A stretch of DNA of 64,000 nt from a bacterium (GCA_029933125.1 JAOZOU010000009.1:10194-74193); one strand, 5' to 3'; counted from the first letter of the stretch, positions 7,778 through 60,709 are shown. A program made the numbers and translations. Notes: generated by a model not told the origin, from the sequence alone.

Positions 7778-8656
7778 TTACTCGATGTTCTGAACTTGTT
7801 CCCTTATCTTCTCTAATTCTTCTTTTATCAACACAACATTTGTTGAGACGGTTGCGTCAGATGCTTTTGCCCCCATTGTGTTGACTTCTCTTGCCATCTC
7901 CTGAAGCAGGAAATTTAGCTTTCTTCCGACTGCACCTCCTTCGGAAAGATAACGCTTAAAGTTATTGAGGTGAACACGATAGCGAACGCACTCCTCAGTA
8001 AAATCTGTCCGTTCAGCAAAGAGAACCACTTCCTGAGCAAGCAGGGCATCATCATATTCGCCCTTTTCAGTCAACTCAGCAATCTTTGCCTTGAGACGCT
8101 GGCGAAGCTCTTCCACACGCCGAGGTAAGCGACTTTCTATTTTCTCAAGGTAGCTCAGGGTTTGGTCCACGCGATTCTCAATGTCTTTTGCGATTGCTTG
8201 TCCCTCTCTCGATTTCATCTCAAGAAGATCATCAAGCGCAATCGAGACTGCTTCCTTCACAAAGGGCAGAGCTCTTGCTGGTTCCCATTCTTCAGCCTCG
8301 CGCTTGAAAAGATCAGGCAGCAGGGCGAAGGTCTGGAGGTCAACCTTGCCTGGAAGATTGTAGCGCTGTCTGAGATTTTCAAAGAGGGCGTAATAACGAT
8401 CCGCAACTTCCTCATCGAGCTTTATTACCTCAGCAAGCCCCTCGGTATCGTCCCAGCTCACGTTTGCAAGAATTCGACCTCTCGAGATCTTTTCTTGAAT
8501 CATGCTCTTTATCTCTGGCTCAAGGGGAGTCAGAAACTTGGGAAGCTTCATTGTCATCTCAAGGAAGCGATTGTTGAAAGATCTGAGTTCTACTGTGACT
8601 CTCACCCCCTTCTCTTCAATTTCGCCCCGACCATAACCAGTCATGCTACGGATCAC
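7778..8656 (-). CDS. yicC: YicC-family stress-induced protein
   Basis: YicC N-terminal motif MTGYGRG; GTG 8656 preceded by GAGGAG at 7 nt spacing; ORF-track start 8764 is probably too long. Confidence 0.8.
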   Translation of the reverse strand: MIRSMTGYGRGEIEEKGVRVTVELRSFNNRFLEMTMKLPKFLTPLEPEIKSMIQEKISRGRILANVSWDDTEGLAEVIKLDEEVADRYYALFENLRQRYNLPGKVDLQTFALLPDLFKREAEEWEPARALPFVKEAVSIALDDLLEMKSREGQAIAKDIENRVDQTLSYLEKIESRLPRRVEELRQRLKAKIAELTEKGEYDDALLAQEVVLFAERTDFTEECVRYRVHLNNFKRYLSEGGAVGRKLNFLLQEMAREVNTMGAKASDATVSTNVVLIKEELEKIREQVQNIE

Positions 8657-9055: not shown

Positions 9056-10237
9056 GTGGAGTATCGCAGGCACAAGGACTTGAGGATCTCGGAGGTTGGA
9101 GTTGGTTGCTATGCTCTGAGTGGAGCTTACGGGAAAAAAGATGTTGATGAGTTCAAGCGAATGCTAAGGCGTGCGTATGAGCTTGGCGTCAACTTTTTCG
9201 ATACAGCTGAAGCATACGGCAATGCAGAAAAGATTCTGGGGGATGCCATCAAACCCTTTCGATCAGAAGTGCACGTTGCCACCAAGGTGGGTATTCGTAA
9301 GGGAGTCGAGCCCAATCTTTCGAAATCGTATGTAACTGCGGCATGTGAGGAAAGTCTCAGGCGGCTTGATACCGACTATATCGACCTCTACCAGGTTCAC
9401 TTTGACGATCCCAAGACACCCGTTGAGGAAACCGTCGAGGCTCTTGAAGGGCTGAAGGCTGCAGGCAAGATACGTCACTACGGGCTTGGACATCTGCCTG
9501 CCGAGAAGGTCAAGCAGTACATGTCAGTTGGAGAAGTCTTCTCTGTGCTTGTCGAGCTCAGTGCCGTTGCAACTGACGCTCGCAACAAGATGCTACCACT
9601 ATGCAGGAGCAAGCAGGTTGGTGTCATTGCCTTCAGCGTAACAGGAAGAGGATTGCTTACGGGTAGATTCAAGCAGCACCCCGAGTTTGAACCCCAGGAC
9701 ATCCGTAACGTCGATCCCTTGTTCAGGCGAGAGCGTTTTGAATCCGGGCTGCGCGTAGCAAGCGAGCTCACCAACATTGGCAAACGGTATGGCAAGACCC
9801 CAGCTCAGGTGGCGATTGCCTGGGTGCTTGCTCAGGCGGGCATCATCTGTGCACTTTGTGGTCCTTCGACTGTTGCTCATCTTGAAGAGAACGTTGGCGG
9901 GAGCGGCTGGCAACTGACCGATGAGGATCTTGCCAGGCTTGAAGACTTACTTGAGCACGAAGCAGCCTTTGTCACAGAACAGCAGAGGGTTGGGATTAAG
10001 GAGATTCTTTCGGGTCGGCTACCAGACGAACCACACCAGGCCTTTAGCGATCTTATCTATGCAATTGAGACAGCAGTCTCGCTTGACCTGACAACCGAGG
10101 CGGAGGTGCTGCCTACCTTCAAAGAACTCTACGCGCTCCGGGGTAAGCTCGATGAGAGCAGCCGTTCCAAACTTGAAGAAGTTCAGGACAGGTTGCGCAG
10201 TCTCATTGGCTTTGTTGACGGAGACACCAATCCGTGA
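9056..10237 (+). CDS. aldo/keto reductase family oxidoreductase with C-terminal extension
   Basis: N-terminal AKR signature (EYRRHKDLRISEVGVGCYALSG, FFDTAEAYGN); GTG 9056 preceded by GAGGAGG; about 80 aa beyond typical AKR length. Confidence 0.8.
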   Translation: MEYRRHKDLRISEVGVGCYALSGAYGKKDVDEFKRMLRRAYELGVNFFDTAEAYGNAEKILGDAIKPFRSEVHVATKVGIRKGVEPNLSKSYVTAACEESLRRLDTDYIDLYQVHFDDPKTPVEETVEALEGLKAAGKIRHYGLGHLPAEKVKQYMSVGEVFSVLVELSAVATDARNKMLPLCRSKQVGVIAFSVTGRGLLTGRFKQHPEFEPQDIRNVDPLFRRERFESGLRVASELTNIGKRYGKTPAQVAIAWVLAQAGIICALCGPSTVAHLEENVGGSGWQLTDEDLARLEDLLEHEAAFVTEQQRVGIKEILSGRLPDEPHQAFSDLIYAIETAVSLDLTTEAEVLPTFKELYALRGKLDESSRSKLEEVQDRLRSLIGFVDGDTNP

Positions 10238-10243
10238 GCCCTC

Positions 10244-10383
10244 GGGGTCGGAGCTAAAAATCGGCAAATCCCCCCAATTGGGGTCGGAGCTAAAAATCTG
10301 CATTCCAGCTTCTTTGGCACGGTCTGTGCAATTGCAAGTTAGGTGCCAGCCACGCCTTCGTGCACGTTTTTAGCTCCGACCCC
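10244..10383. repeat. repeat element locus 1: two direct copies of GGGGTCGGAGCTAAAAA core plus one inverted copy
   Basis: Core at 10244-10260 and 10280-10297 (direct), inverted copy 10365-10383; same core recurs at 43543-43732 and 53976-54066. Confidence 0.8.
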
Positions 10384-12121: not shown

Positions 12122-15100
12122 TCAGCGCATAAGAACCACCTTAGCAGTCGCCGACTGCCTGCCAGATGAGATTCTTACAAAATAGATACCAGCCGAGACG
12201 GCTCTCTCATTCCTTGACATACCGCTCCAGACCAAGGAGTGCATACCAGGTGATAGATGCCCTGCCTCGCTCTCCCACACCAGCCTACCTGCAACGTCAT
12301 AAACAGAGACCCGTACATCACCAAAGGTCGGAATTGTAAAAGATATCTGGAAATTCTCGTGGCTCGGGTTGGGTACAATTTTGGCGATGCCAAAGGCGAG
12401 GTGCTGGCCCCCACCTTGAGAAACACCCGCTATGTCAACATCTCCCTCCCACCGCCGTGCATATATCTCAGGATTACCATCCCTCTCATCCCGCCACACA
12501 ACGGCTATCTTGCCTAAGGCATCGGCAGCCACAGAAGGCAAAGCACAAGAGCCGCTCTCGGATGACAGCCTCGCCTCCCTTGACCAAATCGAAGTGTACG
12601 ACTTGTAGTAGATTGCCTCAGCCTCGTCATAGGTGTCCTCCCAGACCAAATGAAAGCGGCCCCTTCCATCACCACAGATATTGGGCGTCGTGCCAGTACC
12701 AAAAATTTCACCCAGGTCAGTCCACGACCCGCCTTCGTAAAGCATCCCCCGTATGGATGTATCACTCCCATCTTGCTCCTCCCACACCACCATTACCCTG
12801 CCACCGTCGTCGCAGCCAACCGATGGACGCGTCGAGAGACCCGGAGTCGCTACCAGCCTAGTAGAACTGCTCCACACCGAACCATCCCAGACCTTGTAGT
12901 AAATCTCACTATTGCCATCACGTGTATCTTCCCAGACCACGTAGACATTGCCAAGGCTGTCAGCTGCCCCAGCCGGATAGCGTGACACTGCCCCATCGCT
13001 GGTGAGCCTTTCTTCAGTCCACCCTAAACCATCCCATCTAACGCAGTATATCTCCCAGTTGCCATCACGACTGTCCTGGAAGAATATGAATGGCTCATCA
13101 CCCGCACTCACTGCCAACGAAGGATAGTCTGACACACCACTATTGCTGGTCAGTCTTCGATTTGCCTCCCAGATTAAGCCATCATAGTGCTTATAGTATA
13201 TCTCCCAGTTGCCATCACGACTGTCCTTCCAGCACAAGTGGAGCTCGTCACCCACCCCACCACAAATTGAAGGGAGCTGGGATGAAGCCGCATCATAAGT
13301 CAGCCGCGTCTCCGGTAGCCAGCTCACTCCATTCCACTTGCGGTAGTAAATCTCATAATTGCCATCACGATTGTCATACCAGACAACATGCACGTGACCA
13401 CTTGCCTCCCTTACAACACACTTACTGTTGTTCCACGAAGTTGTCGATGAGTAAGTATCGAAGCTTACGCGCTCTTCTTCACCCCAAGGTGTGTCAATGA
13501 TGAGAATGGCGTCAGCGAGGAACGCCTCCTGCAGGTCAGAATCGGAATTCTTAAGCCAGACCTGCCAGTAGCCCGGCTCTGCCCCGCAGAGATCAAAATC
13601 ACATTTGATGTAAGAGTCCGAAAGCCTTGTCACATTCTGTGCAAAAATCGGTTCCTCACCCACCCGCTCGAGCCAGACTGAGGGATTGCCAGCAAAACCG
13701 GTCCCTGTTAGAACGGCATTTACAGGGAAGACGTTGCCAGCTTCCGTTGGGGAAAACCTCGCTATAGCTGCACGTGTCTCACTAGCTGACCAATGCTTAT
13801 AGTATATCTCACTGTTGCCGCCGCCTTGATCATGGCACCAGACGACGTGCACATTCCCGACCGCATCAGTATCCAGGCGACCGGCTTCATCGCGGGTCGA
13901 ATTATATGTCAACCGCTCATCCGGCCACCATCTCACGCCGTCGTACCGCTTGTAATATATCTCATAGTTACCATCACGGCCATCTTGCCACACCACATGC
14001 ACATTACCACTTCCATCAGTCGCTACTGACGGAGCCTCAGAACTGCCTGAAGCATTCGTCAGTCGCTCATCTGGCCCCCAACTCACACCGTCATACCGCT
14101 TGTAATAAATCTCATAGTTACCATCACGGCCATCTTGCCACACCACATGCACATTACCACTTCCATCAGTCGCTACTGATGGATGCCAGGAGTCGCCTGA
14201 AGCATCAGTCAAACGCTCATCTGCTCCCCAACTCACACCATCATAAATTTTATGGTATATCTCCCAGTTACCGTCACGATAATCTTGCCACACAACATGG
14301 ATGTTCCCACTAGTGTCCACGGTCACCTCAGGCATTCGAGATTCGCCTGAAGCAACAGTCAATCGCTCATCCGGCCCCCAACTTGCACCATCATAAACTT
14401 TGTGGTATATCTCCCAGTTACCATCACGGCTCTCTTCCCATACAACGTGCTGATTGCCATCGCTATCCACGGCAACCGCAGCCCACTCAGAATTGCCAGG
14501 ATCGTTCGTCAACCGCTCATCCGGCCCCCAACTTACACCATCATAAACTTTGTGGTATATCTCCCAGTTGCCGTCGCGATAATCCTTCCAGAAAACGTGT
14601 AAGTTTCCGCCGAGGTCTCTTAGTAGCCGTGGATGGAACGAGCTCCCCGAAGCATTAGTTAAGCGTTCATCTGGCCCCCAGGTCACGCCATCATAGCGCT
14701 TATAGTATATCTCTCCATTCCCATCTCGCTCATCCCACCACACAACATGGAGACAGACCCCATCGACGAGTACCCGAGGAGATTGGGAACTGTCATTAGC
14801 ATAGGTAAGCTGCTCTTCAGGTAGCCACTCCCCAGCTGGCATAACATAGAAACCGAAGGGGAGCGTGTCTGGCTGTCCATCTGGATTCTTGACAATAACA
14901 TCCCAGTAGCCAGGGGCAGCGTTCTCGAGATCTGCGGTACAGGTTAGCCTGTCAGAACTCTCAACGCGGATGTTATGACACACGATCCGGGGTTCACCAG
15001 GCTTTTCAAGCCAGACAGAATCAGGAAAGAAAAAGCCAGAACCCGATAGATTTGTGATGCGCACTAATTCATGGCTGTAGCCTTCATCGGGTTCAATCGA

Positions 15101-16279
15101 GTTAATCTGCGGCTTCTCAAGTGTGCCGTTATACCATTCCTTCCAGTATAGCTCCCAGCCGCCATCACGGTTGTCATACCACGCAACATGCACGTTCCCA
15201 CTTTCATCCGTCACTACTGATGGATACCAGGAGTCGCCCGAAGCAACAGTCAAACGCTCATCCGGTCCCCAACTCGCCCCATCATACCGCTTATAATAAA
15301 TCTCATAGTTACCATCACGATTGTCATACCACACCACATGCACGTTACCGCCGGTGTCCGTTCCTACAGAAGGGCTATATGAGTCTCCTGAGGCATTTGT
15401 CAACCGCTCATCTGGTCCCCAGCTCATACCATCATACCGCTTGTAGTATATCTCATAGTTGCCATCACGATTGTCATGCCACACAACATGCACATTACCA
15501 CTTCCATCAGTCGCCACTGATGGATACCGAGAGTAGCCCGAAGCAACTGTCAATCGCTCATCAGAACCCCAACTCATACCATCATACCGCTTGTAATAAA
15601 TCTCATAGTCGCCATCACGATTGTCATGCCACACAACATGCACATTACCACTTCCATCAGTCGCTACTGATGGATACCGAGAGTAGCCCGAAGCAACTGT
15701 CAATCGCTCATCAGAACCCCAACTCACACCATCATACCGCTTATAGTATATCTCTGAGTCGCCATCCCGATGATCCCACCACACCACATGTACATTCCCG
15801 CTCATATCGACTGCGACCGAGGGATCCTGGGAGAGCCCAGCTGAGTTCGTCAACCGCTCATCTGCCCCCCAACTAACACCGTCATATCGCTTATAGTAAA
15901 TCTCCCAGTCGCCATCACGATAGTCCTCCCACACGATATGAACATTACCACTTACGTCCGCAGCCATCCACGCACCCCTAGACTGTCCACCTGCATTCGT
16001 CAAGCGTTCAACAGGGCTCCAACCCGTCCCATCGTAACGCTTGTAGTAAATCTCATCGCTGCCATCGCGAGTGTCCTCCCACACCACATGCACGTTACCA
16101 AACAAGTCCGTGGTCACACACCTACCCATTTCAGCCGAAACCTGGGAAGTGGGTGGATCAGTCAGACGCCAGTCAAAGAACCAGCCAGCAGCTGCCCGAC
16201 TTGCAAAGCACAGACCCAGTGCTATCAAGATCGCAAAAGACCAACCGAACGCTTCGCTTGTGGGTCTATCACGACGCAT
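12122..16279 (-). CDS. giant secreted repeat protein (about 28 x ~50-aa propeller-like repeats, two Ig-like inserts) with T9SS/FlgD-like C-terminal sorting domain
   Basis: Signal peptide MRRDRPTSEAFGWSFAILIALGLCFASRAAAG; repeat unit GNVHVVWxDxRDGNxEIYYKRYDGxSWGxDERLT; C-terminal 85 aa match the T9SS CTD pattern (VPNPSHENFQISF...VYDVAGRLV...GIYFVRI). Start 16279 chosen for signal peptide and SD spacing. Confidence 0.8.
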   Translation of the reverse strand: MRRDRPTSEAFGWSFAILIALGLCFASRAAAGWFFDWRLTDPPTSQVSAEMGRCVTTDLFGNVHVVWEDTRDGSDEIYYKRYDGTGWSPVERLTNAGGQSRGAWMAADVSGNVHIVWEDYRDGDWEIYYKRYDGVSWGADERLTNSAGLSQDPSVAVDMSGNVHVVWWDHRDGDSEIYYKRYDGVSWGSDERLTVASGYSRYPSVATDGSGNVHVVWHDNRDGDYEIYYKRYDGMSWGSDERLTVASGYSRYPSVATDGSGNVHVVWHDNRDGNYEIYYKRYDGMSWGPDERLTNASGDSYSPSVGTDTGGNVHVVWYDNRDGNYEIYYKRYDGASWGPDERLTVASGDSWYPSVVTDESGNVHVAWYDNRDGGWELYWKEWYNGTLEKPQINSIEPDEGYSHELVRITNLSGSGFFFPDSVWLEKPGEPRIVCHNIRVESSDRLTCTADLENAAPGYWDVIVKNPDGQPDTLPFGFYVMPAGEWLPEEQLTYANDSSQSPRVLVDGVCLHVVWWDERDGNGEIYYKRYDGVTWGPDERLTNASGSSFHPRLLRDLGGNLHVFWKDYRDGNWEIYHKVYDGVSWGPDERLTNDPGNSEWAAVAVDSDGNQHVVWEESRDGNWEIYHKVYDGASWGPDERLTVASGESRMPEVTVDTSGNIHVVWQDYRDGNWEIYHKIYDGVSWGADERLTDASGDSWHPSVATDGSGNVHVVWQDGRDGNYEIYYKRYDGVSWGPDERLTNASGSSEAPSVATDGSGNVHVVWQDGRDGNYEIYYKRYDGVRWWPDERLTYNSTRDEAGRLDTDAVGNVHVVWCHDQGGGNSEIYYKHWSASETRAAIARFSPTEAGNVFPVNAVLTGTGFAGNPSVWLERVGEEPIFAQNVTRLSDSYIKCDFDLCGAEPGYWQVWLKNSDSDLQEAFLADAILIIDTPWGEEERVSFDTYSSTTSWNNSKCVVREASGHVHVVWYDNRDGNYEIYYRKWNGVSWLPETRLTYDAASSQLPSICGGVGDELHLCWKDSRDGNWEIYYKHYDGLIWEANRRLTSNSGVSDYPSLAVSAGDEPFIFFQDSRDGNWEIYCVRWDGLGWTEERLTSDGAVSRYPAGAADSLGNVYVVWEDTRDGNSEIYYKVWDGSVWSSSTRLVATPGLSTRPSVGCDDGGRVMVVWEEQDGSDTSIRGMLYEGGSWTDLGEIFGTGTTPNICGDGRGRFHLVWEDTYDEAEAIYYKSYTSIWSREARLSSESGSCALPSVAADALGKIAVVWRDERDGNPEIYARRWEGDVDIAGVSQGGGQHLAFGIAKIVPNPSHENFQISFTIPTFGDVRVSVYDVAGRLVWESEAGHLSPGMHSLVWSGMSRNERAVSAGIYFVRISSGRQSATAKVVLMR

Positions 16280-16690
16280 AGCCATTCCCCCTTTTGAAAG
16301 CCTTTGAAGCATTCTACTCAAAAACATAGCGGCCAACCCGCAGCCACGAACAAAAACCCGGAGAGACGCTCACAATGTCACAGCAGCCCAGCCTGCGCCA
16401 ACATTGGAACCAATTAGCCATTATAGCACACAAGATGCGCTATTTCAACACCTTCTCGTACTTTTGCGGGGAATGGGTGGGGAGAACCCGCTTTCGATGA
16501 AACTGTTTTACATCCTCCACTTCGTTTGATAAAATGGGCGGCCGGCAAGAGAATCTTAACCAAAGGCTGCTGATTGTTCTGCGGGTCTGTCCGAGAGTGC
16601 AGGAAGGGCTAGGGATAGCAGCTACCCAAATCCCTTCCTCACGGTTGATGGGAAATATCGCTTCTGCCTTTCAATTGGGGGTGATTTTCC

Positions 16691-19153
16691 ATGGCGCGCC
16701 TTGACTGTCCCCGGTTGGTGCTGCCACTTGCGGTTCTTATTTTCACATTGGTGTCCCCTCCAACGCCTGTGCTGGGTGATTGGCTCTTTAGCACGAGACA
16801 GGATTTTGCGGTGGGTAGCAGACCTTCACAAGCTGCCCTCCATGACTTCAATAATGATTTCATACTCGACGCTGTCGTCGCCAACAGTGAGAGTGACAAC
16901 GTATCCATCCTCATTGGAAGAGGTGATGGGACATTTACCAGAGCGGAGGACGTAGACGTGGGGGATTACCCTGCCTCCATTTTGGCAACCGATGTTGACC
17001 TTGATCAGGATTGCGACCTTGTCGTAGCCAACACGTGGAGTAATACCATCTCGGTCCTCCTTGGTCATGGCGACGGAACATTCACCCCATCAGCGGAGAT
17101 TCTTGTTGGTGGAGGACCTTGTTTCGTCATCGGTGGCGACTTTAACTGCGACTGGATCCCTGACTTTGCTGTTGCCAACATGTACAGTGATGATATCTCC
17201 GTCGTGTTAGGCAATGGGGATGGAACATTTGATGCCCCGATACGCTTTCCTGTTGGCGGGTACCCGAACTCAATGGTTTCGGGCATGCTGAATGCAGACG
17301 GGTTTTCCGACATCGCTGTAACATGCTATTACGACAACAAAGTCTCAATCCTCTTCGGAAACGGTGATGGCACATTCACAAAGGCAGCCGACCATCCTGT
17401 TGACCACCCAAACGAAGTCTCAACTGGAGACTTTGATTCGGACGGCGATCTTGATCTTGTAGTGGTCAGAGTGTCTTCGACAAACCAATCGGTCCTCGTC
17501 TTCCTAAATGACGGCAATGGAACATTTCAGCCACCGGTTGCATATGAGGCTTACAACTACGGGATCTCAGTTGCTGTATCAGATGTTAATCTTGACGGAC
17601 ATCAGGACTTGGCAGTCGGTGATTTCAACGAGTCATTCTACATTCTCCTGGGAAACGGGGATGGCACTTTCCAGTCGTCGATTTACCACGATGCTGGGAA
17701 CTCCGTCGTCTGCATCCGAGTGGGAGACCTGGACAGAGACGGGCTACCGGATATCCTCGCTGTCAATAGGTATGAGGATACGGTCTCAAGCATCATAGGA
17801 AACGGAGACGGCACGTTCAAAGTCGCACCGTGGTACATGTGTGATTCCGGACTCTGCTCCGTGGCACTAGGCTATCTCAACGCCGATTCATTTCTCGACA
17901 TCGTTACTGGTAATGCTGACGCCCGCAATGTTTCAGTGCTCATTGCAAACGGTGATGCCACCTTTATGCCTGCTGTCAGCTACTTGATTGGGCTCGGTCT
18001 GAGCTGGGTAGTCATCGACGATTTTGGCGGCGACGCAGTTATGGATCTGGCTGTCTCCAGTGATATGCGCTATGTCGCTGTACTTATGGGAAACGGTGAT
18101 GGCACCTTCCAGGATCCAGTGACCTACTGGGTAAAGGGAGGTGCTGCGCATCTCGCCTCCGGCGATGTGGATGGCGACGGCGATGCAGATCTAGCTGTCG
18201 CAATCAAAGACAGTGGCGAGGTAGCGCTCCTACTTAACAACGGTGATGGCACCTTCGCTCCGGCAGTTGGCTACGCGGCTGATGGTGGCACCAATTGTGT
18301 CTGCCTCGATGACTTTGATTGTGACGGTGATCTAGATATCGCTACGGCCAATTGCTATGGGGATAATGTCTCTATCCTGCTGGGCAATGGGGACGGGACC
18401 TTCGCTGCAGCCGTGAACTACCCTGCATCCTTTGGTCCTTGCAGCGTGGTCTCAAACTATCTCGATGGAGATTCTCTTCCAGACCTTGCGGTCGTAAACG
18501 AATATAGCGACAATGTCTCAATACTACTCGGCAACGGTGACGGGACGTTTGACCTGGCCCGAAACTACCCTGTAGCCAACTCTCCTCTCTCACTTGCTAC
18601 AGGAGACTTCAATCGTGACTGCGTACCAGATCTTCTGGTCGTGCATCAGTTCCACTACTTTGTCTCTGTCCTTCTCGGAAACAGAGACGGTACTCTCAGG
18701 GAGCCAGTACTGTATGGCGCTCATATTTTCCCGCGGGCTGCAGCAGTCGGTGACCTAAACGCCGATGGGTCGGATGATGCTGTTGTTGCCAATCAGGGCT
18801 GCCTCAGCGTTTCGGTCCTTCTGGGGGAAATTTGCGCTGGTGTACCTATCGATGGAGACAGGAAACAAGCAGACTCAATTTGCCAGCTGAGGGTCGCGCC
18901 AAATCCATGCACTGGCAGTGCCGCGATTTGGTTCGACATTCCGTCAGAGCAATCTCTAAGAAGTGTCGCTGTCTATGATGTTTCAGGTGCTCTGGTCCGG
19001 CAATGGGTGTTGGAAGCGACGATAAGTAATGGAAACTGTGTTATCTGGGACTGCAGAGACAATTACGGAAGGCGTGTCGCACCGGGCGTTTACTTCGCAA
19101 GTATCCAAAGCGAAGGCGTGTTGGCCACACGCAAGCTCATAGTACTTCGCTAG
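16691..19153 (+). CDS. FG-GAP/VCBS repeat protein with T9SS/FlgD-like C-terminal sorting domain
   Basis: 820 aa; signal peptide; about 13 repeats with D-x-N-x-D-G-x-x-D and GNGDGTF motifs; C-terminal APNPCTGSAAIWFDIP...VYDVSGALV...GVYFASI sorting domain. Confidence 0.8.
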   Translation: MARLDCPRLVLPLAVLIFTLVSPPTPVLGDWLFSTRQDFAVGSRPSQAALHDFNNDFILDAVVANSESDNVSILIGRGDGTFTRAEDVDVGDYPASILATDVDLDQDCDLVVANTWSNTISVLLGHGDGTFTPSAEILVGGGPCFVIGGDFNCDWIPDFAVANMYSDDISVVLGNGDGTFDAPIRFPVGGYPNSMVSGMLNADGFSDIAVTCYYDNKVSILFGNGDGTFTKAADHPVDHPNEVSTGDFDSDGDLDLVVVRVSSTNQSVLVFLNDGNGTFQPPVAYEAYNYGISVAVSDVNLDGHQDLAVGDFNESFYILLGNGDGTFQSSIYHDAGNSVVCIRVGDLDRDGLPDILAVNRYEDTVSSIIGNGDGTFKVAPWYMCDSGLCSVALGYLNADSFLDIVTGNADARNVSVLIANGDATFMPAVSYLIGLGLSWVVIDDFGGDAVMDLAVSSDMRYVAVLMGNGDGTFQDPVTYWVKGGAAHLASGDVDGDGDADLAVAIKDSGEVALLLNNGDGTFAPAVGYAADGGTNCVCLDDFDCDGDLDIATANCYGDNVSILLGNGDGTFAAAVNYPASFGPCSVVSNYLDGDSLPDLAVVNEYSDNVSILLGNGDGTFDLARNYPVANSPLSLATGDFNRDCVPDLLVVHQFHYFVSVLLGNRDGTLREPVLYGAHIFPRAAAVGDLNADGSDDAVVANQGCLSVSVLLGEICAGVPIDGDRKQADSICQLRVAPNPCTGSAAIWFDIPSEQSLRSVAVYDVSGALVRQWVLEATISNGNCVIWDCRDNYGRRVAPGVYFASIQSEGVLATRKLIVLR

Positions 19154-43542: not shown

Positions 43543-43732
43543 GGGGTCGGAGCTAAAAACCTCCAAATCACCCATTTTGGGGTCGGAGCTAAAAAAACGC
43601 AAATCACCCAAAATGGGGTCGGAGCTAAAAAAATGCAAATTGGCTGGAATTGCCTCTTCCACAAGGCCCATGGCTCCTTAACTCATTTACACACAAAGGG
43701 ATACGCGTGTGCAGATTTTTAGCTCCGACCCC
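43543..43732. repeat. repeat element locus 2: three direct 36-bp-unit copies plus inverted terminal copy (MITE-like arrangement)
   Basis: Core GGGGTCGGAGCTAAAAA at 43543-43559, 43579-43597, 43615-43633; inverted copy 43716-43732; the inverted copy overlaps the last codons of the DUF89 gene. Confidence 0.8.
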
Positions 43733-51872: not shown

Positions 51873-51906
51873 CTGCTACAGTTAAACCCCTTAAATAGCC
51901 TACCTC

Positions 51907-51936
51907 AATATAATTTGATGTTTGGAACTAAGTCAA
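51907..51936 (-). promoter_or_regulatory. candidate sigma70-type promoter for the DUF4159 operon (TTGACT-18 nt-TATATT on reverse strand)
   Basis: Reverse-strand TTGACT (51936-51931), 18-nt spacer, TATATT (51912-51907), about 35 nt upstream of ATG 51872. Confidence 0.3.
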
Positions 51937-52865
51937 CCAGCGTGAATCCACATTGTGTCTTCCCGAATTATGAAACCCCTGAAGGAGAACAAGCGTTCCC
52001 GTGGTTGGCGTTTCGGTCCTTTCGGTGAGATTCGCTGGCTGGGGTGCGGCTGGGTGAATCAGACTTGCCGGAGGCTAGCTGGAGACCTGGGGCTTGCGGA
52101 CTGGGTGGATCAGGCTTGCTGGAGCTGCCCGGGATAAGCGGCTGAGTTACGAGGGATGCGCCTCCTATACCATTGCCGTACTGTCTTGGCTCGTCCAATT
52201 CTCCCCTTTTCGTATCTCATCCATTTTGCTGTCTCATCTCTTCCTTCCGCCTCATCTTCTCCATTCCACCCTCCCCAATATATCACCTTTTGCCTCTCGT
52301 CCTTTCTCGTGTCATCTTGCCATCCTTTATCATCTTGCCTCTCTCTGTTGTGCAAGCCAATTGTCATCCTGGCAAACTCAACTCATGGCTCCTTTCGGCC
52401 TCGTCCTTTTGCAATTGTCCTCTTGCCACGCGCCCTCCCCAGCGCCCTCCCCCCGACCTCCACGCTCTCATCCTCTTGCCCTCGTCCGACTGAGCAGTAC
52501 CAGCCTGGCTCTAATGCTTAACACCCTGGTTTGAATGGCTTAGCCAGCAATCATGAGCCAGTGCTCGCGCAATCACCATCCAGCAATTGCCACCTATGCC
52601 ATCCAAATGTAGCGAATTGGCTCCACCGCATGAATGCACCTCGCACCCCATCCGTCTTGAGAAAGCAAGAATGAGACCTGTGACAGGTTAGCGGTTAGCC
52701 AGGGTCTTGGACAGTAATCAGATTCGCAGGTGGATAACCCTTGGAAAAGCCTTAATGTCGAGCAAAAGCCATCGAATGCAATCTAAAAATTCATAACACG
52801 ATCCGGGTGGCACGGAAGGGGGGCAAGAACATGCCCTCAGCCACAGCCTAAAGCCTCCAGATAGC

Positions 52866-53177: not shown

Positions 53178-53269
53178 GAGGAATATTTTGCTCGGTTTTG
53201 GGCTGCTTAGCGAGGCTTAGCAATCACATGGGGCGATGGGAAGGAGTCTGCGGGATTCAAAGCTCGGCC

Positions 53270-53839
53270 TCAGGCTTTTCCTGCGATGACAAGATAGTGG
53301 TAGGAGCTAATCTCGAGGTTTTTCTCTACCGAAAAGGAGGCTGCTTCTAGATATGCTGTCAGCTCATCTGGCGAGATTCTCACCCCGAGTGGTGGACCAG
53401 GGGGCCCCTCTATCTTCTTAAACTCGACTATCATGAATCTCCCAGATGGCTTGAGAATTCTCGAAACCTCTCTCACCGTTGAGATGCGATCTCCATCTTG
53501 GAGAATGTCATGGAGCACTGTGAAAGCAAGAGCAACATCGATGCTTCCGTCACTCAGGGGAATTCGCGATCTTATATCAGCGACAATTGGTATCACATTC
53601 TCAACACAATTGCGAGCCATCTTCTCCTTCAACATCCTAATTCCTTCCTCCCAGAGATCGATGGCAAATACAAGGGCACGTCCCGATAGGTTTCGAGCAA
53701 CAGCGAGTGCGTATTCTCCAACGCCGCACCCAAGATCTGCAACCTTAAGATCCTTGCCGATGGCGAGCTCGGCGAGCAAGCGCTCGGAGTCGATCAGACC
53801 AAAACTGCTTCTCCCTGCCCCTCTTGGCTTATCTTGCAT
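53270..53839 (-). CDS. class I SAM-dependent methyltransferase
   Basis: SAM-binding motif VADLGCGVGEY, motif II/III region (VDVALAFTVLHD, ILKPSGRFMIVEF); start at internal Met preferred (track 53947). Confidence 0.75.
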   Translation of the reverse strand: MQDKPRGAGRSSFGLIDSERLLAELAIGKDLKVADLGCGVGEYALAVARNLSGRALVFAIDLWEEGIRMLKEKMARNCVENVIPIVADIRSRIPLSDGSIDVALAFTVLHDILQDGDRISTVREVSRILKPSGRFMIVEFKKIEGPPGPPLGVRISPDELTAYLEAASFSVEKNLEISSYHYLVIAGKA

Positions 53840-53975
53840 GATCCGTAACCTCGGGACAATCTCACGAGGTGGTTGCCATCGCGAGATTATCTTTGTGACG
53901 CTAACGTAAACTTTTGCTTGGTGCGCGTCAATCGTTTGGAGGTACAAGGCTCAAAGCCAGAGGAGCGAGATTGCA

Positions 53976-54066
53976 GATTTTTAGCTCCGACCCCAAAATC
54001 AGCAATTTGAAGATTTTTAGCTCCGACCCCAAAATCAGCAGTTTGAAGATTTTTAGCTCCGACCCC
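53976..54066. repeat. repeat element locus 3: three tandem 36-bp units containing the same 17-19 bp core, reverse orientation
   Basis: GATTTTTAGCTCCGACCCC at 53976-53994, 54012-54030, 54048-54066 with near-identical 17-bp spacers; lies between divergent genes. Confidence 0.8.
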
Positions 54067-54111
54067 GAGGGGGGTTGACAGGGTGGGGCGTGGCTCTTAG
54101 CATAGGGTTGT

Positions 54112-55188
54112 ATGGGAAGAAGGTGGCTTTCATCGATTGCAGTAGCTTTGGTGCTCATTGGCACGGTGGTCTCCACCCACACAGCTGAGACCAATACTCC
54201 CCTAACCCGCGCTCCCGATTTCATCTTGCGAGAATGTGTCCTTGCCGATAGTATCCACCTTGCAGATTTCAGCGATCACCCTGTCTTGCTCTTCTTCTTT
54301 GACGCTGGCGACGCAGCCATGCGCCCAGCCTATCCCTACCTCAACGAATGGCAACGCCGCTACAAGAATGACGGCCTTAAGGTGATCGGAATTCACTGTC
54401 CTCAATATGAACCGCTCAAGAAGATGGAAAACGCCTCAACCGCAATTGGACGTGCTGGCCTTAAGTTCCCGGTTGGTATGGATTGGGATTGGAAAGTTTT
54501 CAATTCTTTTCATCTTGAGCAACTCCCAACCTTTGTCTTGCTAGGTCCAGGACTTAAACCTTCCTATTCAGTTTCGCGGCTGAGAGCATATACTGAGGTT
54601 GAACAGGCTATCCAGAATCTCCTCAAGCAACTCAAACCAGGCATAATCCTCCCGTTTCTCGTAAAGCACATAAGACCTGAGGACAATCCTCAGCTTAGGC
54701 TGCTTGAGACCACGCCTAAAATCGAATTGGGCTATACCTCGGGGAGCATTGCCAACTGTGATTCCTCAGATTTTGGGAAGTTTGCCGTTTACACAGATCC
54801 AGGTGATAGGAAAAAGGGAGTTGTCTATCTCGATGGACGATGGCGGGTCGATGAGAAAGGCATTACATGCAAGCTGGACTCATCCTACACCAGAGCACGT
54901 CTGCGTGTGCTCTATAGCGGCAAAGCGGTTTGGCTACTCGCAGATTTTCCCCCAGGCAAACCACCCAGGATCTACGTGAAACAGGATAGATCATATCTTC
55001 CTTCCGAGCTCTGGGGCAATGACATAAGATTTGACGAGATGGTTCACCCATTTGTCCTCATACGCTATGCAGTCCCTCTGCACATTGTTGAGAACAAAAC
55101 CCATGGAGCTCACCAGCTCGAACTCATTATCGAGGACGGCGCTGCGACTTTCTATTATCTGTTTTTCGAGAGCGCCGTTGAGCGTTAG
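54112..55188 (+). CDS. exported thioredoxin-like fold protein lacking CxxC, with C-terminal domain of unknown function
   Basis: Signal peptide; TlpA/redoxin-like pattern (PVLLFFFDAGDAAMRPAYPYL...GLKVIGIH...FPVGMDWDWKVF...LPTFVLLG) with FDAGDAAM in place of W-C-x-x-C. Confidence 0.55.
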   Translation: MGRRWLSSIAVALVLIGTVVSTHTAETNTPLTRAPDFILRECVLADSIHLADFSDHPVLLFFFDAGDAAMRPAYPYLNEWQRRYKNDGLKVIGIHCPQYEPLKKMENASTAIGRAGLKFPVGMDWDWKVFNSFHLEQLPTFVLLGPGLKPSYSVSRLRAYTEVEQAIQNLLKQLKPGIILPFLVKHIRPEDNPQLRLLETTPKIELGYTSGSIANCDSSDFGKFAVYTDPGDRKKGVVYLDGRWRVDEKGITCKLDSSYTRARLRVLYSGKAVWLLADFPPGKPPRIYVKQDRSYLPSELWGNDIRFDEMVHPFVLIRYAVPLHIVENKTHGAHQLELIIEDGAATFYYLFFESAVER

Positions 55189-59981: not shown

Positions 59982-60548
59982 CTACCTGGCGGGCACTATT
60001 CTCATCTCTGATATGACCCAGCGGTTGTCTTCAAGAGACAGGGAAACGAAGACAAATTGCTTGGTGACAGCTCCGTTTCTGTACCTGCACACTCTCTCAA
60101 GAAGGGCGGAAGGATGTCCACGTTTGATTTTCGTCCCAGCAGTTTTGACAAAATTCATGCTCGTAGTCTGGGCTCGCCTCAGGTACTGTGAGAGCAGATA
60201 GTAAGCTTGACTCCTGGTAAACAACCCGCCGCGCGGTCCCCCCTCACCAAAATCTAGCCGCACTCTCCCTTTCCCAAAATACCCTACAAATGCCTCGGGC
60301 CTACTCGAGTGGAAACCCCTTGCTACCGCCTTAAAGATATCATGGGGTTCTATCTCTGCTCGAGCCCTACCGTGACGCTTTGGAGCAACTTCGTCTCCTG
60401 CTTGGGTGGTTCCGACCCTCGCCTCGCTTGGACCCAAGATCTCCCGAGCAGTGTTCCCTTTGCTTCGGGCTTCACTCCAACCTAAATTCACAGTCAGTAG
60501 CCCCAAGACCAGAAGGAAGACCGCGCTGACACGAGCTATTCTTACCAT
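59982..60548 (-). CDS. hypothetical exported protein
   Basis: Signal peptide MVRIARVSAVFLLVLGLLTV from internal Met; no recognised family; co-directional between secF and the histidine kinase. Confidence 0.45.
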   Translation of the reverse strand: MVRIARVSAVFLLVLGLLTVNLGWSEARSKGNTAREILGPSEARVGTTQAGDEVAPKRHGRARAEIEPHDIFKAVARGFHSSRPEAFVGYFGKGRVRLDFGEGGPRGGLFTRSQAYYLLSQYLRRAQTTSMNFVKTAGTKIKRGHPSALLERVCRYRNGAVTKQFVFVSLSLEDNRWVISEMRIVPAR

Positions 60549-60709
60549 TCTGCGTCCTCCGAGAGTCTTCGATTGCAATAGTCGTGCCAGCAATCTCAGC
60601 CATCTCCCTTCTCTAAGGGGCTATCAAACATAGACTTACCCATAGGTATGATTCGACACCCATAATAAATGTCTTAAATGAAAGCCAAGATGTCCACCAA
60701 AAGGTACAT

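Follow-up and report, generated by a model that had tools for sequence, protein, structure and literature searches.

A tandem repeat array in a divergent intergenic region is probably a partnerless arm of a dispersed REP/BIME-like family

Repetitive extragenic palindromes, known as REP, BIME and REPIN elements, occur in Enterobacteria and Pseudomonas, and in the BIME-1 or RIP form of E. coli two inverted REPs surround an IHF site. The Correia elements of Neisseria have conserved interiors, TA target duplications and sigma-70-type promoters. Here we compare with these systems a tandem array that lies between two divergent genes in a 64-kb stretch of bacterial DNA (the window, with positions counted from its first letter). 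The array, referred to as locus 3, is probably the partnerless, locally duplicated and partly decayed arm of a dispersed REP/BIME-like family, other copies of which carry a sigma-54 promoter.

The array at locus 3 and its flanking genes

TRF reported an array at 53971–54066, in minus-strand orientation, with a period of 36 bp and 2.7 copies (score 178, 96% matches). The array is made up of three exact copies of a 17-mer core, GGGGTCGGAGCTAAAAA, two 19-nt spacers and a 7-nt extension of the third unit. All three cores are on the minus strand: copy 1 at 54050–54066, 8 nt from the −35 hexamer of a thioredoxin-like gene, copy 2 at 54014–54030, and copy 3 at 53978–53994 in the unit nearest a methyltransferase gene, relative to which the array is in 'forward' orientation. 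Head-to-tail 36-bp repeats in reverse orientation, placed at 53976–54066 by the initial annotation, were recovered both by TRF and by the exact core matches. Its count of three units holds for the cores only: two 36-bp units are complete, and the third continues for 7 further bases in common (TTGCAGA vs TTGAAGA) before diverging. When the core is counted as 17 nt, the spacers (53995–54013 and 54031–54049) measure 19 nt each, not the 17 bp given previously, and they are 18/19 identical with a sole difference at 54005 (A) vs 54041 (G), as the reported single mismatch would have it. A contig from an independent Logan assembly, the one other assembly found to carry the locus, begins within the array and matches its last 1.6 units exactly. 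A CRISPR array was rejected because the spacers are near-identical, 17 nt alone are conserved between loci, and there are no cas genes nearby.

The 17-mer occurs 10 times in the window, at three intergenic loci, compared to 0.15 copies expected, and 0/100 shuffled sequences reached 10 copies. An nhmmer profile of the family recovered these 10 known copies alone, the next match having E = 1.2, and the assignment of locus 3 to a repeat family is borne out by the exact cores at all three loci. The reported lack of an inverted copy at locus 3 was also confirmed, as none was found by a search allowing three mismatches or by the nhmmer profile, built from 84 family copies and run window-wide. One candidate for a degenerate inverted partner (53230–53252) matched 12/23 positions by eye, was undetected by the family profile and was rejected.

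The flanking genes had been correctly located and named, and Pfam agrees with both: a class I SAM-dependent methyltransferase of UbiE/Methyltransf_25 type (53270–53842, minus strand) and an AhpC/TSA-thioredoxin-like protein (54112–55188, plus strand; orthologues P0002 and P0003). The sigma-70-type promoter TTGACA-17-TAGCAT assigned to the latter gene is present at 54075–54103 on the plus strand and scored 10/12 in our scan. Its −10 hexamer ends 8 nt before the ATG, and the same distance is found in 3/3 genomes (window 54098–54114; L033 ∼9985–10003; L034 ∼8010–8031), which implies that the thioredoxin-like mRNA would be leaderless or nearly so. The 3′ end of this gene overlaps that of a convergent 1607-aa histidine kinase gene by 62 nt (55127–55188), an overlap also called in L033, L034 and L118.

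A dispersed family with sigma-54 promoter modules

Seven of the window's 10 cores belong to loci 1 and 2, both of which have terminal inverted repeats at their two ends, a feature absent at locus 3. Locus 1 (10244–10383, plus strand) contains two tandem units, at 10244 and 10280, an inverted core at 10367–10383, and two sigma-54 motifs standing face to face (10315–10330, plus; 10333–10348, minus). It starts 6 nt past the aldo-keto reductase stop codon, with an NFACT gene downstream, and is predicted to fold into a long hairpin (z = −5.9) in which the paired inverted cores form a 23-bp stem. Contig L037 has a 103-nt palindromic arrangement like that at locus 1, with face-to-face sigma-54 motifs. 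Locus 2 (43543–43732, plus strand), flanked by a sulfatase and an ARMT1-like gene that converge on it, is made up of three tandem units and an inverted core, whose TAA is the ARMT1-like stop codon. Inverted pairs together with tandem clusters, as in REP/BIME elements, are therefore found at loci 1 and 2 and in many metagenomic copies, and locus 3 is tandem only. The array period is 36 bp at all three window loci. Spacers are alike within an array and unlike between arrays, as local duplication of units, rather than repeated insertion, would produce.

Complete copies consist of a single P arm facing one to three inverted tandem T units. The P arm is composed of one core, CGTGCA, 12 variable bases and the motif TGGCAC-N5-TTGC(T/A), which points into the element. 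T units have the form GGGGTCGGAGC(C/T)AAAAAGCTGCAAATCCCCCC..TTT with a period of 26–47 bp, mostly 36–37 bp. The interior between the arms is 0–430 nt long and unrelated between copies, 23 nt alone being held in common. We identified 99 cores in 45 family loci, and 18 of these cores have a sigma-54 motif at the exact P-arm offset, where 0.02 would be expected (a module was called when GG and GC were present with at least 9/11 consensus bases; background 2.3e-4 per site). In the majority of P arms the promoter is directed into the element, in many cases with convergent genes on either side. The bases separating the conserved blocks vary from copy to copy, and the two arms of a single element can differ as well, so conservation appears to be block-wise, as in protein-binding sites, and not copy-wise, as in recent transposon copies.

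Genes accompany some of the promoter-bearing copies. At L115 (623–1886; same locus as L040) the interior is a whole 148-aa gene followed by the inverted core. The P-arm sigma-54 promoter faces this gene, which encodes a lipoprotein-like signal peptide, and a gene for an enhancer-binding protein (AAA_lid_14 + HTH_8) has its 3′ end 270 nt before the P arm. At L058 (1582–1662) a NUDIX hydrolase gene (1639–2103) appears to start inside a reversed unit (ATGCACGATTTTAGCTCCGACCCC = MHDFSSDP...). The array spacer, which here follows the element's sigma-54 promoter, contains a perfect ribosome-binding site, AAGGAGGT. No enrichment of enhancer-binding protein genes was seen beside the elements, with 2 independent loci among ∼150 neighboring genes. 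A perfect sigma-54 promoter also exists apart from the family, at 60574–60590 on the minus strand of the window (CTGGCACGACTATTGCA, CTGGCAC-N5-TTGCA). The start codon of a 188-aa gene (ATG at 60548) lies 26 nt downstream of it, and the next gene encodes the 1607-aa HAMP/PAS histidine kinase. As the promoter motif is kept in L033 and L034 with a different N5, the lineage probably uses sigma-54 (RpoN). Genes with a Sigma54_activat domain are present in related family contigs, and rpoN is not within the 64-kb window.

Each of the 99 cores lies between genes or reaches no farther into a gene than its last codons. The GGGG tip faces a gene 3′ end in 27/40 cluster sides (ORF within 60 nt), and in 14 of those 27 the stop codon is the core's own TAA (...GG GGT CGG AGC TAA). 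A gene 5′ end is faced in just 8/40 sides, and as two of these eight are the two sides of locus 3, this locus is atypical of the family. Orthologous positions have kept their cores in genomes whose proteins are just ∼68% identical. In L020 and L049, for example, the gene end and the 23-mer are common to both and the intergenic interior that follows is unalignable. Unit number seems to be dynamic at the orthologous sulfatase/ARMT1 locus, where the sulfatase stop codon is followed by 3+1 copies in the window, 1+3 in L033/L072 and 1 in L110. Target-site duplications were not found flanking complete copies (window loci 1 and 2, L016, L036, L037, L066, L074 and L088).

The family is itself a target of insertion. 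An IS110-family element of ∼1.47 kb (DEDD_Tnp_IS110 + Transposase_20 by Pfam) lies at ∼168–1640 in L090 and ∼356–1800 in L099, inserted at the identical core point (GGGGTC^GGAGC), with GCTCCGA joined to ACATCCCGCTGAG... at one junction and ...ACTATGGTA joined to GACCCC at the other. The same insertion point in two different copies suggests that the repeat core is a preferred target of this element. Apart from it, no transposase lies between or beside cores in ∼470 kb of family loci. The repeat also causes breaks in short-read assemblies.

Typical T units are predicted to fold, through pairing of GGGG with CCCC and of AGCT with AGCT, into an imperfect hairpin (−12 to −14 kcal/mol) with a T-run behind it; the invariant core alone is not palindromic. 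One locus 3 unit yields −5.4 kcal/mol and the whole array an unremarkable z of −1.65; its spacers have TGCTGA in place of the C-run that lets typical units fold. A consensus scan for intrinsic terminators found none at loci 1, 2 or 3. Directly after tRNA genes in several related contigs (L015 2500–2545, L041 ∼220–260, L051, and L117 1398–1440) we observed a core together with part of a second copy in inverse orientation (GGGGTCGGAGC-13 nt-GCTCCGACCCC); in L041, L051 and L117 a TTTT comes next, and the conserved pair resembles a terminator hairpin.

In a one-genome-per-species scan multiple copies were found in just two genomes. One is the unclassified MAG Meg22_1214_Bin_137, in which 12 contigs carry the unit GGGGTCGGAGCTAAAAACGTGCA with the same 23-mer. 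The other is an Acidobacteriota MAG with elements of 230–370 bp that have the same 17-mer at both tips and interiors that are conserved but different from those of the window family. In this MAG (MFD01721.bin.2.2; L012, L022, L023 and L031) the inverted-repeat tips read GGGGTCGGAGCTAAAAAATCAAA..., and the interiors, unrelated to those of the window family, have no sigma-54 motif and the elements no target duplication. The L022 interior has an ORF (MARPLRVEHPGALWH...) with a putative resemblance to RAYT N-termini, but neither Pfam nor a homologue search gave a match to it. A metagenome scan added dozens more contigs, chiefly from a few marine-sediment samples. Plasmid and viral collections gave no match to the family, nor did Rfam at gathering thresholds and at E ≤ 1 or a tRNA search. 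In the open literature the core sequence appears in no relevant paper, and we found nothing relevant on a sigma-54-bearing REP or MITE or on the MAG. A 32-nt, one-mismatch match of a locus 3 unit to human-gut Clostridia contigs was rejected as a chance A/T-rich hairpin representing one independent sequence. The neighbors of family loci are housekeeping genes and also genes with type IX secretion sorting domains, and these domains point to a host lineage in the Fibrobacterota-Chlorobiota-Bacteroidota group of phyla. One window gene (12122–16336, minus strand) encodes a 1404-aa protein with ∼16 tandem 150-nt (50-aa) repeats, BNR_4/SBBP-like matches and a C-terminal type IX secretion sorting domain; the next gene (16691–19153) encodes FG-GAP repeats.

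Origin of the locus 3 array and competing readings

The innermost unit of the locus 3 array retains the outline of a P arm. Read on the minus strand, it is GGGGTCGGAGCTAAAAA-TCTGCA-ATCTCGCTCCTC-TGGCTT-TGAGC-CTTGT, with TCTGCA at 53977–53972, a 12-nt spacer at 53971–53960 and TGGCTT-TGAGC-CTTGT at 53959–53944. This apparent vestige of a promoter module (53944–53977) is in the same register as the 18 intact modules. Where complete copies have TGGCAC-N5-TTGCT, locus 3 keeps TGGC and is missing the GC at −12, and a sigma-54 −24/−12 site of the form TGGCAC-N5-TTGCW is absent from the locus. Core copy 3 is the top locus 3 match to the P-arm profile (E = 1.7e-8), which aligned at 53996–53956, through TGGC and as far as profile position 45. 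By manual count, the first 39 nt of the unit match the promoter-bearing unit of locus 1 (10280–10318) at 34/39 positions; the TCTGCA extension is common to both and 7/12 spacer bases are alike. A sigma-54 promoter for the methyltransferase gene was rejected, as TGGC is in register without the GC at −12 and nothing better lies nearby. By reading the sequence we noted a candidate sigma-70-type promoter, TTGACG-17-TACGTT (53893–53921, minus strand), below the threshold of our scan, which is plausibly a better present promoter for the methyltransferase than the sigma-54 vestige.

Three relatives, L033, L034 and the outgroup L118/L119, are syntenic with the window in the order DUF4159, B-box, thioredoxin-like and histidine kinase genes. 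Their thioredoxin-like proteins are 67–68% (L033/L034, themselves 70% identical to each other) and 48% (L118/L119) identical in amino acid sequence to that of the window. Directly upstream of the thioredoxin-like start, TTGACA-N17-TA(G/C)(C/G)AT is kept in all of them with varying spacer bases, as is the promoter block of the B-box gene (...TTGTCAAGAGGAATATT...). Between these two conserved promoters neither a methyltransferase gene nor any core was found in L033, L034 or L118/L119. Alignments with L033 and L034, and with the outgroup L118, delimit a lineage-specific segment of ∼0.88 kb (53191–54068), flanked by the two promoter blocks and with the array as its right-hand end. The best non-self homologue of the methyltransferase among 5.8 billion clustered proteins is just 50% identical, and given its absence from three other lineages, one of them an outgroup, gain of the segment in this lineage is the parsimonious reading. 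A second lineage-specific insertion lies nearby at 51873–52865, where the DUF4159 and B-box genes are separated by ∼1 kb of DNA rich in C/T and poor in ORFs; this spacer is 217 nt in L033, only its first ∼66 nt are conserved, and it has no Rfam match.

As the relatives keep the promoter and lack both array and methyltransferase, the array would be a lineage-specific addition, not a conserved control region. Of the two possibilities raised by the initial annotation, an operator-like site gains no support from this comparison, since the array is absent in L033, L034 and L118, and an element remnant agrees with the lack at locus 3 of the inverted partner that complete members of this dispersed family possess, and with the vestigial sigma-54 module. 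We therefore favor a remnant. The family behaves like REP/BIME-type elements, and its complete copies would be inverted-repeat structures in which one arm carries a sigma-54 −24/−12 promoter at a fixed distance of 12 nt and the other is an array of one to three units. At locus 3 the tandem arm alone would be present, its innermost unit keeping the spacing and TGGC and having lost the −12 GC. The array may have arrived with, or formed at the edge of, the recently gained methyltransferase segment between two older divergent promoters. It could be a decaying version of the module, array and sigma-54 promoter together, that is intact at locus 1, and would now do little or nothing except supply both promoters with A/T-rich upstream DNA.

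What carries the remnant reading is that the array appears to belong to the family, has no detectable partner, is missing from relatives that have the promoter, and contains two full units whose near-identity is what recent local duplication would leave. Four points count against it. A decaying remnant would not be expected to have perfect 17-nt cores, as locus 3 does, unless duplication or insertion was recent or whatever keeps the family invariant still maintains them. The gain of the segment is judged from the three lineages above, outgroup included. The array ends 8 nt from an intact −35 hexamer, where a bound protein could act, and it may have a newly acquired regulatory effect. Lastly, no REP-associated transposase or other trans-acting partner was found in the family loci, and 'REP-like' is a description of behavior, not of membership.

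The main rival holds that the cores are binding sites for a sequence-specific protein, whether an enhancer-binding activator, an architectural protein or the sigma-54 holoenzyme, and that a phased array acts on one or both divergent promoters. The invariance of the core at orthologous loci with diverged interiors (L020/L049; locus 2/L033/L110) is in line with this, as is the fixing of core and sigma-54 motif with free bases between them, a signature of protein binding, at the same distance from −24/−12 in 18 copies. The lineage also appears to use sigma-54, to judge from the motif at 60574–60590, and has enhancer-binding protein genes in family contigs; at locus 3 the perfect cores span roughly −45 to −140 of the thioredoxin-like promoter. 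However, the orthologous promoter apparently works without the array in three relatives, and locus 3 seems to have no functional sigma-54 −12 element. Most copies adjoin a gene 3′ end or separate convergent genes, positions that offer nothing to activate, and enhancer-binding protein genes show no enrichment beside them. The period of 36 bp corresponds to 3.4 helical turns, so the locus 3 sites do not fall on one face of the helix. On balance we consider a binding array at this locus unlikely.

A broader proposal, which we advance only tentatively, is that the family may represent an undescribed class of chromosomal element, a 23-nt protein-recognition block fixed 12 nt from a sigma-54 promoter. 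When core and extension are read as their reverse complement (TGCACGTTTTTAGCT, or TGGCAGCTTTTTAGCT in certain units), they come close to a consensus sigma-54 site, and so sigma-54 holoenzyme or a dedicated activator may read every copy. If this were true, such elements would have spread to perhaps at least a hundred gene boundaries and stayed unchanged through long periods of evolution, acting as portable cassettes that provide a sigma-54 promoter or an insulator, driving the downstream gene at window locus 1, L058, L079 and L115 and giving rise to stable closed complexes or short transcripts between convergent genes. The locus 3 array would then be a live protein-binding array and not a remnant.

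It is improbable that the array is instead one end of a MITE, with the cores serving as terminal inverted repeats and subterminal transposase sites of the Tn7, Mu or Tn402 type and the other end lost when the methyltransferase segment was inserted or rearranged. Inverted cores do stand at both tips of loci 1 and 2 and of many metagenomic copies, in an asymmetric arrangement of 1 vs 2–3, and the 230–370-bp Acidobacteriota elements share the 17-mer tips and have conserved interiors; the breaking of short-read assemblies at the repeat also fits. Yet no complete copy has a target-site duplication, interiors apart from the common 23 nt are unrelated, and the sole transposase in ∼470 kb of family loci is that of the IS110-family element targeting the core. 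Cores persist at orthologous positions in genomes just 68% identical in protein, and plasmids and viruses in the collections searched do not carry them. At locus 3 the profile search found no second end, and across the family loci and the plasmid and viral collections no transposase gene has these ends. An RNA-level element that terminates, processes or stabilizes transcripts, at locus 3 those crossing the divergent region, would suit the 3′-end positions (27/40 sides, 14 with the core TAA as stop), the T-unit hairpins with their T-runs and the 23-bp stem of paired cores, but is very improbable here, as no gene reads into the array on either strand, its units fold weakly, and the three loci show no consensus terminator and no Rfam match even at E = 1.

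Comparison with known repeat and promoter systems

The flagged site itself matters little if, as seems probable, it is no more than a partial copy bordering a gained gene. The family is of wider interest as a set of REP-like repeats, in an uncultured sediment lineage, with a canonical sigma-54 promoter fixed to an invariant 23-nt block. If the promoter modules fire, sigma-54-dependent starts or closed-complex roadblocks would be distributed to many gene boundaries, a concrete case of a repeat family shaping a sigma-factor regulon. Repeats that break assemblies and attract an IS110-family element are also relevant to the binning and annotation of these genomes.

Like REP, BIME and REPIN elements, the family is short, lineage-specific and extragenic, is concentrated just after stop codons, and occurs as singles, inverted pairs around a short variable spacer and tandem clusters. 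It also resembles them in having no target duplications, in being kept at orthologous loci and in serving as a target of IS110-family insertion. Unlike REPs, its 17-nt core is non-palindromic, starts with GGGGTC and has no GTAG in the conserved block, and the locus 3 units fold poorly. A REP-associated tyrosine transposase flanked by repeats was not found among ∼150 genes in family loci or by motif search. One arm of the family carries a sigma-54 motif at a fixed distance, which to our knowledge is not a feature of any REP. As in BIME-1, inverted arms enclose a site for a component of the transcription or architectural machinery, but the enclosed site is a sigma-54 −24/−12 motif, in many cases restricted to one arm, with a tandem array as the opposite arm.

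The resemblance to Correia elements and promoter-carrying MITEs lies in small inverted-repeat elements at gene boundaries that may supply promoters or terminators; the family lacks the conserved interiors, TA duplications and sigma-70-type promoters of the former. With DNA uptake sequences (DUS of Neisseria, USS of Pasteurellaceae) it has in common a very conserved short motif, maintained across related species and often in inverted pairs downstream of genes, but it is far sparser (10 copies/64 kb), is never deep inside genes, is 17–23 nt long and forms tandem arrays. The canonical TGGCAC-N5-TTGC(A/T) with conserved upstream blocks, and with tandem sites 45–140 bp upstream in some copies, recalls sigma-54 promoters such as glnAp2 with NtrC and Pu with XylR. 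In contrast to these, just 12 nt separate the −24 element of the family from its nearest conserved block, locus 3 has no −12 element, and the block recurs hundreds of kilobases apart, at gene 3′ ends and between convergent genes.
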